Assembly: GCA_963675745.2 (NCBI GenBank)
Contig: CAXXWX010000010.1
Location: 96,001 to 160,000, forward strand
Length of the DNA: 64,000 nucleotides
Direction of reading: 5' to 3'
From: Phycisphaerae bacterium
GTDB lineage: Bacteria > Planctomycetota > Phycisphaerae > UBA1845 > Fen-1342
Shown: positions 27,001-33,000 of the stretch, piece after piece
Position numbering within the stretch: position 1 is the first letter of the stretch
Layout: the number at the start of each line of letters is the position of its first letter
Program-made: the position numbers

Positions 27001-30000
27001 GCACTGCGCAACGCGCCGCAGCAACACGAGTCGTTTTTCCAGGTGCCGCCGGTCCTCGGCGGCGGCGGCGCATAGATGATGAAGCGCGCCCGACCATTGA
27101 TGGCGCGCCGCGGGCCTCAGCCCGCGCGGCACGTCGATTGCGAGCGTGGTGCCCCAGAAGACACATGAGCACACCTGATTCGGCACAACTGATCGCGGCG
27201 GATGTGGCGGCGGCACGCCGGCGCGCTGTTGACGTCTGCGCGGAAGCGCTGGAGCGCATCGAGGCGTGTGACAGTGCCACGGGGGCCTTTATCGAGGTGA
27301 CGCGCGCTCACGCGCTGGACGCGGCCGCGCGCATCGATGGCGATGTCGCAGCCGGCAAGTCTGTCGGGCCGCTGGCAGGCGTGCCGGTCGCCATCAAGGA
27401 CAACCTGTGTACGCGTTTCAGCCGGACCACGTGTGGGTCGAAGATGTTGGCGGCTTTCGAGTCGCCGTACGACGCGACCGCTGTCGAGCGACTCGAACGC
27501 GCCGGCGCCGTCATCGTCGGCAAGACAAACCTCGACGAGTTTGCGATGGGTTCGTCGACCGAGACCAGCGTGTTCGGCCGCACGCGAAACCCCTGGGATC
27601 TGCAACGTGTTCCCGGCGGCTCATCGGGTGGTTCGACCGTGGCCGTCGCGGCACGCATGGTGCCCATAGCGCTTGGAACCGACACGGGCGGCTCGATACG
27701 CCAACCTGCCTCGTTGTGCGGCGTCGTCGGCATGAAACCGACCTACGGGCGCGTTTCGCGCTTCGGCCTGGTGGCGTACGGCTCCAGCCTTGACCAGATT
27801 GGGCCGCTGGCGACGTGCGTTGACGATGTGGCGGTTGTACTGACGGCGATCAGCGGGCATGATCCGAAAGACTCGACCTGCGTGGACCAGCCCGTGCCGG
27901 ATTACCGCGCGGCGCTGATGGATGACAATCTCGCGCAGCGCGCATCAGGATTGCGGATCGGCATCCCGCGGGAATACTTCGGTGAGGGGCTCGACGCGCA
28001 GGTCAGCGACGCTGTCAAGCAGGCGCTCGACGTGTACCAGACGCTCGGTGCAGAGTTGGTCGACCTCTCACTGCCACACACCCGATACTGCATCGCCGCC
28101 TACTACGTGGTCGCGACGGCGGAAGCGTCCAGCAACCTGGCGCGCTTTGACGGCGTGCACTACGGGCATCGGGCTGAGAAACCATCCGGCATCGTTGATC
28201 TCTACAGCAGATCGCGCGAGGAGGGCTTCGGCCCCGAGGTCAAGCGTCGCATCATGCTGGGGACCTTCGCGCTGTCCGCGGGCTACTACGACGCGTATTA
28301 CAACAAGGCACTCAAGGTCCGCCGGCTGATCAAGCAGGACTTCGACCGGGCGTTCGAGCAGGTTGATGTGCTGGCGTGCCCGGCGTCGCCAACGCCGGCG
28401 TTTCGACTGGGCGAGAAACTCGACGACCCGCTCCAGATGTATCTGGCCGACGTCTACACCATCGGCCCGAACCTCGCCGGCCTGCCGGGCATCGTCGTGC
28501 CGTGCGGATTCAGCGGTGGGGGGTTGCCAATTGGATTGCAGTTGATCGGGCCGTTGTTCGGCGAAGCGGCGCTTCTTCAAACCGCGCGATTACACGAGCG
28601 CGAGACTGATTGGCACACGCGCCGGCCGCCCGATATCGGGTAACCAGCGCCGCCTCAATCCAACCGCCCCGTCAGGCGTCCGAGTCGGGCCGGTTTCACC
28701 AGCGTGCATTCTCGCGAAGTCACGGCCGACTCGGGGGGCGGCCGCTAGAGCGGTTTCAGTAAAGACGCGGTGGCTTACACTGTCGGGGTGGGTCGGGCGT
28801 CTCGCCCGACTTCGACGAAAGCAGTACATGGGCGGGTGGGACGCCCGCCCCACCCGCGTATGGGCAACGGATTGTTGTTGAAACCGCTCTAGGCTATAAG
28901 GCAAAACGCGCTATCGACGAATCGTGCGCAGAAACTCCTGCACTTCCGGTATCTCCCCCTGGTAGATGAGGTAGCCGTTGTAGGGTTCGCGCTCGGTGAT
29001 GTCGTTGCAGATCGGCGTGAGCATGATCCGTTGGACTTCGGCCGGGTCGGACGACTGACCCAGGGCCCAACAGAGTTTCATATACGCGACTTCCGGCAGC
29101 ATGTTCGCCAGGGGGACAACGCCGAGCTTCATGATCTCGCGTCCCGTTTCATAGACGTACATCTGCACATAACCCCAAAGCGTTTGGACGGTCATGTAGA
29201 TGTGTACGCCGGCGTCCGTCGCGCGCTTTAACGCCGGGTACAGCGGTTTGTTTACGTGGCCGAGTCCGGTGCCGGCGATGACGATGCCGCGGTAGCCCTT
29301 CTCGACAATCGCATCAACAATGTCGGGCTGCATCCCGGGGTAGTAATAGAGGATCGTCACCTTCTCCTCGAACGTCAGTTTCAGTGTCACGTTGCGGTCG
29401 AGACGGCGGCGACGGAAGTCGTCGCGCAACGGCGACACTTCCTTGGGCGAGATCATGGCCAGAGGCACATCACCGATCGTGCGAAATGTGGACCGGTAGC
29501 TCGAGTGCATCTTGCGCACGCGCGTGCCGCGGTGCAGCAGGCAGTATTCATCCGACGTCGGCCCGAACATGCAGACCATAACTTCGGCAATCGGCCCCTC
29601 GGCGGCGGCTTTGACCGCGTTGATCAGATTGATCGCCGCGTCGGACGACGGACGATCGGAGCTGCGCTGCGAGCCGACCATTACGATCGGAACGGGTGAG
29701 TCCTGCACCATGAAGCTGAGCACTGCGGCGGTGTGGTGCATGGTGTCGGTGCCGTGCCCGATTACGACGCCGTCGACGCCTTCCGCGATCGCCTCGCCGA
29801 CCCTTTTGGCCAATGCCAGATAGTTCTCCTTGGCCATGTTCTCGCTGAACACGCCGTAGAGCTTCTCGGTGCGCAGATTGCAGATGTCGGCGAGCTCGGG
29901 CACGGACCCGTAGAGCTCGCCGGGTGAGAACGCCGGAATGACGGCGCCGGTGCGGTAGTCGAGCCGACTGGCGATTGTGCCGCCGGTGCCGAACAGGACC

Positions 30001-33000
30001 ACGTTCGGTTTGGCCGGGTCGCGCGGGAACTCCTTCTCGGGGATTTTGTAGTGCGCCTCGCGGCGGCCGATTTCGGTGATGTTTGTAATCGAATCGGCGG
30101 CAATGCCGACGTTGTAGCCGCTGCTCAGCTTGATCACGATATGGCGGTCATCGGCGGTTTCGGAGCGCGGCAGGATGATACCCGCGAAAATGCCGTTGTT
30201 TGAGTCAAGCTTTACTTCACTCCACACGCCGACATTGTATTGCTCGAGAACTGCGGCGCCGGGGCCGCGGTAGCTTTTGCGTGGCGAATCATCGTTCGAC
30301 GCAGCCCGACGTGCCTCGGTGGTAGCCTTGTCAGAATCCATTTCCAGATCATCCTGCATTTGACCAAGTACTGCATTGTCCGGCAGGCCTCCGGCCGCCC
30401 ACGCTGACTTGCGGATGGAGGCGACCAGGTCTGTCGGAGTCCACGCGAGCGATTACACCGTTGAGTGCTCAGCCGGGCCGGGTGTGGTACTGCAATCCAG
30501 GCGCTGCCGCACCAGCGCCGCCAGGTGGCGCCCTTCGACGCGCCCGATCAATCGGCTCATCAGCCGGCCCATCACCCAGCGCTGCCGCGCATCGATCGGT
30601 TTATCGGTGCGCGGATTCGCGTCGAGTTCTCGAAGCGCCTCGTCGACTTCCGTTTGGACCACCTTGTCGTTGACCGGCTCACAGGTAAGCGCGCTGGTGA
30701 CTTCGGCGACGCGCGCCACGGGGAACTGCGCTGCCTCACTGTCGCTCAGCACTTGTTCGATCACCAGCGTAACGCCATCGCGGGTTATCCGTCCGTCTGC
30801 ATGCGCCCGAAACGCCTCATACAGGCACTCGTCACATAGCCGTTGCGGTCGGAACCCGGCGCGCCATAGCGCTTTCATGCGTTGCACGAGCACAACCGCC
30901 GCGAATGTGGGGTCTATCTTCAGCTCTTGCACCAGCCGATCAAACAGGCCGATGCGTGGCGAGACCATCAGGGGCTGCAGTGTGTCATGGGGGACGCCCA
31001 GCCTGGCGAGCTCGGCCTCGCGCTCCCAGACATTCACGGGTAAGAGGGATCGGATCTGCTCGAGCCTGGGACGCGTGATCTCCAATGGCGGCAGGTCGGT
31101 GTCTGGGTACATACGCTCGGCGCCGGGGAGCACGCGCTCGAATCCGGTTGTGCCGTCGGGTAGCGCCTGGCGTGTATCATGCGGCACGCCTTCCGTCGCC
31201 TCGCGGGCCCTGATCACAATCTCTTCACACGCCGTCTCGGTGTCGTCACGATCGCCCCACACCAATACGAGCGCGTCGCCGGCCTTGGCCCTGGTTATGC
31301 GATACAGCTCTTTCCAATCGCGCGCCGTCAGGGCCTCGGTCGCCGTGTCTGAGTGCACGATATTGGGCATCTTCGACAGGCAAGCGACCACGCGCACGCG
31401 GTCGGCGAACTCCTTGGCAAAGGTCGTGTGCTCCTGCGTGGTCTCGTTGAGCAATCCCGCGAAACCACGCAGCGCGACGCACATGACGCGCAGCCCGTCG
31501 GCAAGCGCCGCGCGGATCGGGTCATAGCGCACCTTTGTCACCGCGCGCGTGACCTCGTGTTTTGAGTACGCGAAGGAGTCCGGGGTAACTCCGCGTTGCC
31601 GCAACATCTCCCGGATGCGCAGCAGGGCGCATTGCCGCATGGCTTCGTTATAGGTCAGACGCGGGATGCGCCAGATCTGCGGCACGCCCTTGATCTCGAC
31701 GCGCGTACCACCCCGCACGCTCACGTTGACATCCTCGCGCGCGGCGCCATACCCCGTGCGGACTTTGCCCGTGCTGCGGGCCAGCATCCGCAGGATCTGG
31801 CAAACCTCGGCCGCCTCTTGCGGCGTGCGCATATCGGGGTCGGTCACGGTCTCGGTCAGCGGCATGCCCAGCCGGTCCGTCAACAGCACCCGATCGTGCC
31901 CGGTGTCGGAAACCTCGCGACAGGAATCCTCTTCGATCGAAAGCTGGGTGATACCGATGCGGCGGTCCTTGTAGGGAATCCACCCTCCGACGCCGATGAT
32001 CGCCGTACGTTGAAAGCCAGTGGGGATCGATCCGTCCAGATACTGCTTGCGCGCGATGTGCAGTTCGCCGACGATATTCAATCGCAGCAGCAGCGACAGT
32101 TCGAGGGCGATATCGAGGGCGTGGTCGTTGATGAAGAATGGAGGTGTGTCGTCAAACTCGTATGTGCAGACGGTTTCGCGGTGCAGGCGGTAATAGATGT
32201 TCTTCCGCGTCTTCTTCTCCATCAATGCCGTGCCGTCATACTCGCCGAGCTCGGATAGTGTCGGGCGCATGTGGCGCAGGATCTCGGCATCGTAATCGTT
32301 GCTGTAGTGGCCGGCGGGGCAACGGCAGAACAGCTTTGTGTTGGTCAGCAACTGCTGGTGGATTTCGAGGCCACACTTGAATCCAAGGCCGGCGTAATCC
32401 TCTGCAGTCATCTCGTTGAACGGTTTCAAAGGCGGCTGCGTCACGCGCTCTCTCCGATCCTGGCAGTCGAAACCCCCATGTTAGAATAGCCATCGGGGCC
32501 CCGCAACCTGCCAGATGCTCGACTCGCAGGCACCCGGCCGGGGCACGTCTGCGTGGGCGGAAGCCGCCGGCGGCGAGGAGACAAACGTGCGCACGGGAGG
32601 CTATTCCGGGGGGGATAGCCGGGAGATGCGTTCGACGGCATCCGCGTACCAGACTGGCGGCGGCGAGCCAGCCAAGTCTACCGCCCGGCGCAACGCACTG
32701 ACCGCTCCCCCCTCGTCGCTGAGCTGTTCGCGCGCCAGACCCAGGTGATAGTGCGCGCCGGCGTGCTCCGGTGCGATGGCAACGGCTCGCCGTAGGTGCT
32801 CCAGAGCGTCACGCGGGCGGCCGCCCCAGCTTAGCACGCAGCCCAACGTATCCCGGAAATTCGCGTTATCGGGCTCAAGTGCTACCGCGTGTTCCGCGTG
32901 TCGCAGGGCCGCTTCAAGATTGTCGCCCAGCTCATAACAGGCCCAGGCGGCGTTGTTCATGGCAACCGCATCGTCCGGGTCGCGCCCAATCAACGTCGTG

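Follow-up and report, generated by a model that had tools for sequence, protein, structure and literature searches.

An archaeal-type GatDE amidotransferase alongside GlnRS and GatCAB in a bacterium of the Phycisphaerae

Background

Reviews call the amidotransferase GatDE archaea-only, and in the archaeal enzyme the tail of GatE binds the D-loop of the tRNA. Archaeal GatDE recognises tRNAs with an A1-U72 end (PMC2330236, in part; PMC9499178), bacterial GatCAB those with U1-A72 (PMC2330236 and PMC9976931, both in part), and archaea in general lack GlnRS (PMC9499178). Direct charging and an amidotransferase are combined in Deinococcus radiodurans, Thermus thermophilus and Bdellovibrio bacteriovorus, which have GlnRS, AsnRS and GatCAB together; there, GatCAB is used to make asparagine, together with a non-discriminating AspRS (PMC4206432, in part).

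In this study I examine a gatE-gatD pair from a planctomycete (assembly GCA_963675745.2), situated in a window of 64,000 nucleotides, the whole stretch of contig CAXXWX010000010.1 that was analysed. An initial annotation had read the pair as an archaeal GatDE, laterally acquired by this lineage and kept beside both bacterial routes to Gln-tRNA(Gln).

Results and discussion

Both genes are intact and match the equivalog models assigned to them initially, GatD with 514.5 bits (NF003217, cut-off 310, E 1.7e-154, profile positions 6-416 of 420) and GatE with 510.4 bits (NF003107, cut-off 456, E 6.6e-153, positions 3-625 of 630), while GatE stays below the cut-off of every GatB model (best 144.9 bits, cut-off 338). 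GatD contains the Pfam domains GatD_N, Asparaginase and Asparaginase_C (54.4, 186.6 and 116.8 bits, respectively). The layout of GatE is a catalytic cradle (GatB_N, 171 bits), an AspRS-like GAD insertion (29.6 bits) and a divergent C-terminal helical, YqeY-like tail, which at 20.8 bits remains below the GatB_Yqey cut-off of 27. Residues 16-649 of GatE match 2d6f_C at 1.6e-97, and GatD matches 2d6f_A at 1.5e-119. The coordinates are given in Table 1.

Table 1. Features of the gatE-gatD locus and its surroundings, in positions of the window
Feature	Position	Strand	Description	Model
gatE	30453-32444	-	663-aa ORF, GTG start; predicted tRNA-dependent kinase/amidotransferase subunit	NF003107
gatD	28911-30359	-	482-aa ORF, ATG start; predicted asparaginase-type glutaminase subunit	NF003217
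gatE-then-gatD operon arrangement	30360-32444	-	gatE upstream; spacer 30360-30452, 93 bp	
gatC	26704-27075	+	longest ORF, downstream of rpmB; domain at residues 43-114	Pfam GatC, 74.2 bits
gatA	26982-28643	+	longest ORF; family match from about residue 67-79	TIGR00132, 605.4 bits (cut-off 481.1)
rpmB	26419-26688	+		Pfam Ribosomal_L28, 48.5 bits
spacer between the convergent gatA and gatD	28644-28910		267 bp	

The catalytic residues, whose roles are taken from PMC2330236 (in part), are conserved. H29, E171 and E198 of GatE correspond to H15, E157 and E184, the Mg ligands of the Methanothermobacter thermautotrophicus enzyme, and are the same in 51 of 51 bacterial rows and, one gap excepted, in 49 archaeal rows; T128, T204, D205 and K283 of GatD are invariant in all 90 aligned sequences. 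The dN/dS ratio is 0.045-0.16 for GatD (10 computable pairs, an eleventh being saturated) and 0.11-0.26 for GatE (6 pairs); among these pairs are two of genomes without GatB (0.10 for G057/G058, 0.12 for G053/G054). Both genes are thus under purifying selection. The tail of GatE is its least conserved part, barely alignable with archaea (19% identity) and with a mean pairwise identity of 22% among bacteria versus 32% among archaea, whereas the cradle shows the reverse (68% versus 53%).

The public gene call for gatD, identical in sequence, is 476 aa long and hence starts at 30341. The rpmB-gatC-gatA genes are convergent to gatE-gatD. GatA adjoins gatDE in none of 80 loci of other genomes, and in the relatives G020 and G051 gatDE and gatCA lie on separate contigs, so the adjacency is local to this genome. 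No conserved third gene was found beside gatED among 30 bacterial loci.

As the assembly consists of 28 contigs with an estimated contamination of 6%, an archaeal contaminant of the bin, or else a decaying remnant, has to be considered. However, the GC content is even over the whole window (0.60-0.65), the neighbours are bacterial genes (rpmB, gatCA, accBC, pepQ), and the closest GatD relatives, at 76-82% identity, come from Phycisphaerae MAGs, some of them on contigs of 2.7-5.7 Mb, which excludes archaeal contamination, in line with the initial judgement. With the intact reading frames, invariant residues and low dN/dS added, both forms of this explanation are refuted, and I give them practically no credence.

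Trees of GatE, of GatD and of both concatenated, with bacterial sequences sampled from about 10 phyla and the root not fixed, place all sampled bacterial GatDE in one long-stemmed clade (SH-aLRT 99, 100 and 100, respectively), in which the Planctomycetota form one subclade. Its nearest relatives, as far as trees without a fixed root tell, are three Thermoplasmatota and an Asgard group. For GatD, the sister group of all bacterial sequences is the Thermoplasmatota trio (support 94), which in the GatE tree falls inside the bacterial clade; the Asgard group forms a single clade of its own in the concatenated tree (support 95), located beside the bacterial clade and not around it. A constraint of all archaea to one clade was not rejected (p-AU 0.38). 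The order gatE-then-gatD, with adjacent genes, is observed in 24 of 30 bacterial loci and reversed in none; it is also found in 12 of 12 Asgard-type archaeal loci, while gatD is upstream of gatE in another 21 archaeal loci.

A private archaeal import by this planctomycete lineage is therefore rejected, as the pair sits in a single deep and diverse bacterial clade. The archaeal type of the genes, their intactness and their coexistence with the bacterial routes stand. The pair belongs to an old bacterial clade, with ties to Asgard-type GatDE and to that of one Thermoplasmatota lineage, and this clade has probably since moved among bacterial phyla. The rule that GatDE is confined to Archaea is broken, as had been proposed, but public databases already annotate these genes as GatD and GatE; a literature search found no paper on bacterial GatDE.

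The other routes were correctly reported for this genome. Apart from GatA and GatC, it encodes GlnRS (C15:103114-104697, 729.6 bits, cut-off 425.8) and GatB (C1:237353-238792, 476.5 bits, cut-off 314.8). Of the 279 genomes of the order, 88 have a GatD above its cut-off, as do 31 of the 71 other genomes of the family (as read from the distribution table), close to the earlier counts. GatDE carriers make up 34 of 72 family genomes, 32 of which also have GlnRS, and the three-route state is common in the family and nothing exceptional, with GatDE, GatB and GlnRS occurring together in 21 of the 72. This coexistence is not a binning artefact, because two single-contig genomes of the same order (G146 and G154) carry GatD, GlnRS and GatB on one contig.

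The loss of GatCAB is nearly confined to GatDE carriers. GatB is absent from 11 of the 34 family genomes with GatDE versus 4 of the 38 without it, these four being all 90% complete or less; at a completeness of at least 90% the numbers are 6 of 23 and 1 of 28. The association yields a Fisher p of about 0.04, a statistic that ignores shared ancestry. On the GatD tree of the family, the 10 GatB-less rows require 8 changes, and the starred branches force at least 5. GatA was absent too in all five GatB-less genomes tested. Several sister genera have lost GatCAB, with GatDE as the sole tRNA amidotransferase left. Only one genome of at least 90% completeness (G039, 90%) lacks both amidotransferases, and it also lacks GlnRS. 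In a genus without GlnRS (g5), GatD is found on a long branch, which does not fit an enzyme that has only recently become essential. Outside the family, five GatDE genomes of other phyla have GlnRS in 5 of 5 cases and GatB in 1 of 5; in the Krumholzibacteria genome, tRNA-Gln(CUG) and tRNA-Glu(CUC) lie less than 90 bp downstream of a gltX gene, a circumstantial link of GatDE to GluRS and tRNA-Gln.

Given the pattern of GatCAB loss, the conserved residues and the low dN/dS, GatDE is probably a real amidotransferase, and the comparative pattern points to an ordinary role overlapping with that of GatCAB. I consider it reasonably likely that gatE-gatD, as a member of the bacterial GatDE clade, encodes a functional tRNA-dependent amidotransferase of two subunits, with Glu-tRNA(Gln) as the most plausible substrate. 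The single bacterial-type GluRS encoded in the genome would have to be non-discriminating and put some glutamate on tRNA-Gln. GatE would bind the resulting Glu-tRNA(Gln), the side-chain carboxyl of which would be phosphorylated with ATP/Mg2+ via H29, E171 and E198; GatD, with its four conserved residues, would hydrolyse asparagine or glutamine, and the released ammonia would pass to GatE to yield Gln-tRNA(Gln). GatDE would here run parallel to GatCAB, which has the same chemistry, and to direct charging by GlnRS. No archaeal-type GluRS partner was found in this genome. As GlnRS, AsnRS (68 of 72 family genomes, including every GatB-less genome of at least 90% completeness) and an AsnB-type asparagine synthase (over its cut-off) are all present, no amidotransferase is obviously needed, and the supply of substrate is assumed. 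A changed or conditional role, as initially suggested, is possible.

The tRNAs bear on the substrate. ARAGORN finds the three tRNA-Gln genes reported before, all with U1 opposite A72, as in all tRNA-Gln genes read in the family; the enzyme would have to accept this bacterial end, and together with the divergent tail of GatE it implies that tRNA recognition must differ from that of the studied enzymes. In the tandem tRNA-Gln(CUG) pair, one copy has an aberrant 3' end. The tRNA-Asn of this genome shares both U1-A72 and the 7-nt D-loop AAUGGUA with tRNA-Gln, whereas tRNA-Asp and tRNA-Glu have G1-C72 and longer D-loops, so an enzyme that has adapted to bacterial tRNA-Gln by means of these features would not, as far as the tRNA itself is concerned, exclude tRNA-Asn. 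Bacterial GatDE might then be an Asp-tRNA(Asn) or dual Asp/Glu amidotransferase that replaces GatCAB in GlnRS-bearing bacteria, the more so as loss of GatCAB removes the Asp-amidotransferase activity too, yet GatDE stays. The asnS of this assembly even contains one frameshift; this is, however, a single indel, possibly an error of the assembly, and the gene is otherwise conserved (69-76% identical to its orthologue from the same genus). With AsnRS as widespread as it is, and AsnB present here and over its cut-off in five of five GatCAB-less genomes tested, a tRNA-dependent route to asparagine is not required, and Asp-tRNA(Asn) is not a substrate of the archaeal enzymes studied so far, according to PMC2330236 (in part). 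I regard this alternative as unlikely.

Similarly doubtful is a division of labour between isoacceptors, with GlnRS charging tRNA-Gln(CUG), and GluRS plus GatCAB or GatDE serving tRNA-Gln(UUG); if true, it would refine the Glu-tRNA(Gln) explanation and account for the constant retention of an amidotransferase. The acceptor stems do differ: U1-A72, A2-U71, C3-G70 in 30 of 30 tRNA-Gln(UUG) genes read in the family, against U1-A72, G2-C71, G3-C70 in 45 of 45 tRNA-Gln(CUG) genes (44 family genomes). Base pairs 1-72 and 3-70 serve as identity elements for Escherichia coli GlnRS (PMC9976931, in part), the only GlnRS for which identity rules are known, and in G038 and G040 tRNA-Gln(CUG) lies about 270 bp from glnS. 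However, the stems are the same whether or not a family genome has GlnRS, GatDE or GatCAB and therefore track none of the three enzymes. Nor does the pattern hold generally: of the five GatDE genomes from other phyla, four carry G2-C71 and G3-C70 in both isoacceptors, and in the fifth (Bacteroidales) both deviate.

That GlnRS accompanies GatDE almost throughout, inside and outside the family, and that the tRNA-binding tail of GatE evolves fast could also indicate a role outside routine translation, such as a nitrogen-handling tRNA-coupled glutaminase/asparaginase, a stress or backup enzyme when free glutamine is scarce, or a supplier of aminoacyl-tRNA to a non-ribosomal process. For the M. thermautotrophicus enzyme, Asn is almost as good a donor as Gln (PMC2330236, in part), which would suit a backup. 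Nonetheless, I think such a role quite improbable, as the 30 bacterial gatED loci have no constant third gene, conservation is complete at the kinase and amidase sites with a cradle more conserved among bacteria than among archaea, and the genomes that tolerate a loss of GatCAB are mostly those with GatDE, an argument that both enzymes do the same work.

Comparison with known systems

Archaeal GatDE, known from M. thermautotrophicus (PDB 2D6F, with tRNA-Gln) and Pyrococcus abyssi (PDB 1ZQ1), does not differ from the present pair in its subunits or in the order of their domains: GatD consists of GatD_N and an asparaginase fold, while GatE has the cradle, then the AspRS-like insertion and the helical/tail region. 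Both chains align over their full length, with all named catalytic residues conserved. Identities to the archaeal genes are 30-44% for GatE (50 archaeal loci) and 35-53% for GatD (33 of these 50). In contrast to the archaeal systems, the host is bacterial and has GlnRS and GatCAB besides, its tRNA-Gln has U1-A72 instead of A1-U72, the GatE tail is barely alignable, an archaeal-type GluRS partner is missing, and the genes belong to a separate, long-stemmed clade.

With Asgard GatDE (Promethearchaeota/Loki, Sigyn, Odin, Hod, Jord) the locus has the gatE-then-gatD order in common. GatD is 43-53% identical to this Asgard-type group and 57-59% to the three Thermoplasmatota MAGs; both groups have tRNA-Gln with A1-U72 and are not known to possess GlnRS.

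Bacterial GatCAB, which this genome encodes as well (gatCA lies 267 bp from gatD), proceeds through the same three chemical steps, and its GatB is paralogous to GatE. The glutaminase of GatCAB is the GatA amidase with GatC, whereas GatDE employs the asparaginase-type GatD, and GatB is without the AspRS-like insertion that GatE has.

D. radiodurans, T. thermophilus and B. bacteriovorus likewise keep direct synthetases beside a seemingly redundant amidotransferase; in contrast to these species, a second enzyme of the GatDE type is added here, and AsnB is present.

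Identity and genomic setting of the gene pair

Both proteins pass the cut-offs of the curated equivalog models over their full length, GatD with 514.5 bits against NF003217 (cut-off 310) and 508.9 bits against TIGR02153 (cut-off 324), and GatE with 510.4 bits against NF003107 (cut-off 456) and 458.7 bits against TIGR00134 (cut-off 319.55). GatE falls below every GatB model, the best match being 144.9 bits for a cut-off of 338, and the assignment of the two genes in the initial annotation is upheld by these scores. In GatD, the specific N-terminal domain GatD_N (Pfam PF18195, 54.4 bits, cut-off 25.7) is followed by a type I asparaginase fold (PF00710, 186.6 bits; PF17763, 116.8 bits). 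GatE is resolved by Pfam into a GatB/E cradle, a GAD insertion and a YqeY-like tail. The insertion (PF02938, 29.6 bits, cut-off 23.4, residues 310-405) is the AspRS-like domain that is a feature of GatE and is missing from GatB, and the C-terminal tail is sub-threshold (PF02637, 20.8 bits, cut-off 27), although it spans profile positions 2-148 of 148. Homologues of the pair with solved structures form a well-known complex, described as a GatD2-GatE2 assembly with an ammonia tunnel and a glutaminase that depends on Glu-tRNA(Gln). Full-length alignments to the solved chains of M. thermautotrophicus were obtained for both proteins (GatE with 2d6f_C, 1.6e-97; GatD with 2d6f_A, 1.5e-119); that of GatE reaches residue 615 of 619. 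Among the aligned GatE sequences, identity in the tail is just 19-22%.

Location of gatE, gatD and the neighbouring genes in the window
Gene	Position (nt)	Strand	Remarks
rpmB	26419-26688	plus	upstream of gatC, heading towards gatD
gatC	26704-27075	plus	between rpmB and gatA
gatA	end at 28643	plus	convergent with gatD, 267-bp spacer
gatD	28911-30359	minus	482-aa ORF, co-directional with gatE; GatD equivalogs NF003217, TIGR02153
gatE	30453-32444	minus	663-aa ORF; GatE equivalogs NF003107, TIGR00134

Synteny with relatives is limited to accC-accB-pepQ-rpmB-gatCA, and gatDE is located elsewhere in the related genomes G020 and G051. I looked for an insertion or deletion footprint with a 16-kb DNA search in five relatives, followed by tblastn on the regions fetched, and no clean junction of gatDE gain or loss could be reconstructed from this comparison. 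An Rfam scan of positions 26000-33500 (E up to 1) gave a single snoRNA match at chance level, a promoter and terminator scan of positions 28400-32900 gave no more sites than shuffled sequence, and no conserved third gene was seen beside gatED in 30 bacterial loci by crude ORF calling and tblastn. A search for sequencing runs that contain this stretch listed three, all of one study and none registered as RNA. Directly upstream of gatE (32601-37570, minus strand) lie two consecutive large proteins of 771 and 885 aa with ORFs overlapping by 4 bp, each with an N-terminal sulfatase domain fused to a long C-terminal TPR array; this pair has no counterpart at that site in relatives.

The window's GatDE is neither contamination nor a binning artefact, nor is it a rarity. 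The best 120 GatD relatives listed are 76-82% identical, and the named ones among them are from Phycisphaerae or Planctomycetota MAGs and already carry the label GatD in public databases. Some of the contigs bearing these relatives measure 2.7-5.7 Mb. Within the order, GatD exceeds the cut-off in 88 of 279 genomes, two of which (G146 and G154) consist of a single contig with GatD, GlnRS and GatB together. With a GC content that is flat over the whole window, these observations bear out the earlier opinion that archaeal contamination is unlikely. Matches to GatD and GatE in bacterial genomes are real, and should not be read by annotators as a sign of contamination.

The assembly (5.2 Mb, 28 contigs, 91% completeness, 6% contamination) further encodes GlnRS (729.6 bits), GatB (476.5 bits) and an AsnB-type asparagine synthase (489 bits). 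With gatC and gatA in the window, the reported coexistence of GatDE with GlnRS and GatCAB is confirmed, and the initial observation was found correct in each detail checked (the gene pair, GlnRS, GatB, GatA and GatC, and tRNA-Gln). The asnS gene (C4:65489-66981, outside the window) is present as two halves in different frames, with one frameshift near C4:66,560, and each half is 69-76% identical to the intact orthologue from the same genus; an indel introduced during assembly or a very recent inactivation could explain it. A Glu/Lys-rich insertion in the AsnRS of the family was read in the same-genus sequence, and in the remaining family it shows as two profile stretches in one frame of about 510 aa. 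The genome has one GluRS, which is bacterial-type, and none of archaeal type. Co-transfer of an archaeal GluRS with GatDE was rejected, since neither this genome nor any of five GatDE genomes from other phyla yielded one. Compared with every solved GluRS structure aligned, the sole GluRS (C4:90988-92604; L009:631-2292, minus strand) has about 64 inserted residues (259-322) just past the KMSKS region; the PDB alignments shown involve Thermotoga enzymes alone, and alignment over the anticodon-binding part was weak.

Phylogeny and gene order

A GatE search of 1.84 billion representatives returned 666 matches at E 1e-30 or better, among which a group at 43-59% identity is set apart from the remainder at 32-38%. 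A scan with one genome per species yielded 592 relatives, and 80 loci were kept, 50 from archaea and 30 from bacteria. The latter, as labelled by their submitters, belong to Myxococcota, Bacteroidota, Ignavibacteriota, Zixibacteria, Aegiribacteria/Fermentibacteria, Krumholzibacteria, Cloacimonadota, Thermoanaerobaculia, Aminicenantes and Planctomycetota; a few further bacterial MAGs are labelled Eubacteriales, Rickettsiales or Hyphomicrobiales.

The GatE tree (IQ-TREE, LG+C20, quick search) holds 81 rows, namely 78 of the loci (two with less than 560 aa were excluded), the window, one Heimdallarchaeota protein and the genome's own GatB. Every bacterial row falls into one clade (SH-aLRT 99, stem 0.43), which includes three Thermoplasmatota too, and within which the five Planctomycetota rows group together with support 100. 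In the GatD tree (51 rows) the bacteria are again one clade (support 100, stem 0.56), sister to Sigynarchaeota and Promethearchaeota (support 93). In an unrooted tree of both proteins concatenated (49 rows) the bacteria (100), the Asgard group of Odin-, Hod-, Sigyn- and Promethearchaeota (95) and the other archaea (100, stem 0.31) meet at one point. The window's GatE and GatD thus lie in all three trees inside the sole clade that holds all sampled bacterial sequences. The gene order agrees with the trees. In the bacterial loci, gatE is followed by an adjacent gatD in 24 of 30, gatD is never upstream of gatE, and the remaining six have no GatD in the locus, two of them being truncated at a contig end. 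In the 50 archaeal loci, the order gatE then gatD, adjacent, is confined to 12 of the Asgard-type group, gatD lies upstream in 21, and 17 have no GatD in the locus. The adjacency in 24 of the 30 bacterial loci is only suggestive of a GatD2-GatE2 complex.

Trees and gene order together place the window's pair in an old bacterial GatDE lineage. The lateral acquisition from archaea by a planctomycete lineage, as initially proposed, is not borne out, as the pair belongs to this old clade and is no fresh archaeal import. With the genome's own asparaginase as outgroup, constraining the 30 archaeal GatD to one group lowers the log-likelihood by only 4.1 units (p-AU 0.38), so that a nesting of the bacterial clade within the archaea is neither shown nor rejected.

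The GatD of the three Thermoplasmatota is bacterial-type too, 57-59% identical to that of the window, and the trio is sister to all bacterial GatD with support 94 (FastTree). Either theirs is the lineage of the donor, or they received these genes back from bacteria. In these MAGs (loci L035, L063, L078 and L144-L146) the bacterial-type gatE and gatD are unlinked from each other, and other Thermoplasmatota have ordinary archaeal-type GatDE. Within the bacterial clade the phyla are intermixed, with Bacteroidota, Ignavibacteriota and Myxococcota each at two places, and GatE and GatD are nearly the same in two MAGs labelled Ignavibacteria and Zixibacteria (L030, L050), at a tree distance of about 0.03. 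This likeness points to a very recent transfer or a mislabelled bin; from the mixing of phyla and the near-identical genes it follows that gatDE has moved between bacteria. Within the order, the operon is often split: among 40 gatD loci (L104-L143), gatE lies within about 2 kb upstream in 25 and outside the fetched stretch in 15, four of which are cut by contig ends, and the two genes are separated by 0.6-1.3 kb in L109, L119 and L126.

GatDE and GatCAB across the family

Of the 72 family genomes, 62 have GlnRS, 68 AsnRS, 57 GatB and 34 GatDE, the latter being 32 with GatD over the cut-off, one with a GatD fragment (G077) and one with a gatE fragment (G048). GlnRS is encoded by 32 of the 34 GatDE carriers, and 21 of the 72 genomes have GatDE, GatB and GlnRS together. 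GatB is absent from 11 of the 34 carriers versus 4 of the 38 non-carriers, and those four are only 62-90% complete. At a completeness of at least 90%, the figures are 6 of 23 versus 1 of 28 (Fisher p ~0.04, kinship ignored). GatA was not found in any of the five best GatB-less genomes (G055, G057, G058, G075 and G076, 92-98% complete), all of which retain GlnRS, AsnRS and AsnB. The GatB-less rows are spread over the family GatD tree, where well-supported branches force at least five changes. The family thus shows three states (GatCAB only, both enzymes, GatDE only) with almost no genome that lacks both, a pattern that is expected if GatDE can do the job of GatCAB.

The five GatDE genomes of other phyla all have GlnRS, one has GatB, and three have two bacterial GluRS genes. 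In Krumholzibacteria (L225, G283:C1:920407-922160), tRNA-Gln(CUG) and tRNA-Glu(CUC) come directly after one of the two gltX copies, a hint of a GluRS serving both tRNAs; the two tRNA genes are 12 nt apart there and in a Cloacimonetes locus (L226). A single genus of the family, g5 (G014 and G015; loci L105 and L106), has GatDE and GatB and no GlnRS. Its GatD is strongly accelerated (stem 0.86, tips 0.59 and 1.12) with intact catalytic residues, and its gatE is not adjacent to gatD.

Signs of function and tRNA recognition

GatD residues T128, T204, D205 and K283, the nucleophile Thr and the Thr-Asp-Lys site by the catalytic roles given in a published account (PMC2330236), are invariant in all 90 aligned sequences. 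GatE residues H29, E171 and E198 align with the Mg2+-binding H15, E157 and E184 of the M. thermautotrophicus kinase pocket, and are invariant in 51 bacterial rows and, save one gap, in 49 archaeal rows. Comparisons of pairs from the order give a dN/dS of 0.045-0.16 for gatD (10 pairs, an eleventh being saturated) and 0.11-0.26 for gatE (six pairs). The mean pairwise identity of the GatE cradle is 68% in bacteria versus 53% in archaea, and that of the C-terminal tail 22% versus 32%.

According to PMC2330236 and PMC9499178, the D-loop is read by the GatE tail in archaeal GatDE, and A1-U72 is read by the enzyme. The tRNA-Gln of the GatDE-bearing bacteria examined has U1-A72 instead. The window's genome has three tRNA-Gln genes, all with U1, and A72 is the partner in both copies with an intact 3' end (ARAGORN), in accordance with the bacterial end reported initially. 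U1 was read in all 75 tRNA-Gln genes of the family, with A72 in all save the aberrant copy of the window's genome, and U1-A72 in 10 of 10 genes of other phyla. As the archaeal enzyme reads A1-U72, tRNA recognition must have been rebuilt. The aberrant copy belongs to two tandem tRNA-Gln(CUG) genes 17 bp apart (C26:506895-507054, L181, outside the window); the upstream one is identical over 68 nt, has its 3' acceptor strand replaced with loss of the U1-A72 pairing, and may be a pseudo-tRNA.

In the same genome, the first pair and the 7-nt D-loop of tRNA-Asn are identical to those of tRNA-Gln (ARAGORN). An asparagine route, in which GatDE would act on Asp-tRNA(Asn), loses weight with both AsnRS and AsnB present; I keep it in consideration because tRNA-Asn and tRNA-Gln would look alike to an amidotransferase here. 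The tRNAs also suggest a division of labour between the routes by isoacceptor: in the family, all 30 tRNA-Gln(UUG) genes read have A2-U71 and C3-G70, all 45 tRNA-Gln(CUG) genes have G2-C71 and G3-C70, and pairs 1-72 and 3-70 are described for E. coli as identity elements of GlnRS (PMC9976931). However, this pattern is independent of the presence of GlnRS, GatDE or GatCAB and is absent in other phyla, and for these reasons I hold the division only as a hypothesis. As a general rule it was rejected, with the canonical G2-C71 and G3-C70 in both tRNA-Gln species in four of five GatDE genomes elsewhere. Two genomes of genus g19 (G038:C4:147417-149337 and G040:C72:11098-13018) have a tRNA-Gln(CUG) gene some 270 bp upstream of glnS; the two genes are unlinked in the window's genome.

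Discussion

The window's GatDE is genuine and looks functional, an ordinary representative of a known enzyme in its bacterial branch, which has been little described. Most likely it acts as a Glu-tRNA(Gln) amidotransferase, a substrate that I infer; this would come from a GluRS with some remaining capacity to charge tRNA-Gln, with GatDE operating alongside GatCAB and GlnRS. A more far-reaching joint reading, rather unlikely to hold as a whole, is that bacterial GatDE would be a full replacement of GatCAB and no redundant passenger, re-tuned to U1-A72 tRNAs, possibly serving both Glu-tRNA(Gln) and Asp-tRNA(Asn), and required beside GlnRS and AsnRS because GluRS and/or AspRS mischarge; the clade itself would then be of great age, having come early and once from an archaeon resembling Asgard or Thermoplasmatota, or else being equal in age to the archaeal lineage. 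This second case would fit the old proposal of GatDE in LUCA.

Full-text searches that did not extend to subscription papers found no account of a bacterial GatDE. New here are the three-state pattern inside one family with loss of the whole GatCAB, the affinity of bacterial GatDE to Thermoplasmatota and Asgard archaea with a shared gene order, the contrast in conservation between the cradle and the tail of GatE, and the tRNA comparisons. The Phycisphaerae family, with GatCAB-only, GatCAB plus GatDE and GatDE-only genomes, is a natural experiment on two questions: what makes cells with direct synthetases retain an amidotransferase, and by what changes the recognition of tRNA was rewired.

In two reviews (PMC2330236, PMC9499178), GatDE is confined to Archaea, and its co-evolution with A1-U72 tRNA-Gln is invoked for archaea never gaining GlnRS. 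Both points are contradicted by a monophyletic, selectively maintained bacterial branch that coexists with GlnRS, in a background of U1-A72 tRNAs, and can persist as sole amidotransferase after the loss of GatCAB. The break with the rule of GatDE in Archaea only, as claimed initially, therefore stands: the archaeal GatDE of the literature resides in hosts without GlnRS, whereas the one in the window resides in a bacterial host in which GlnRS is present.
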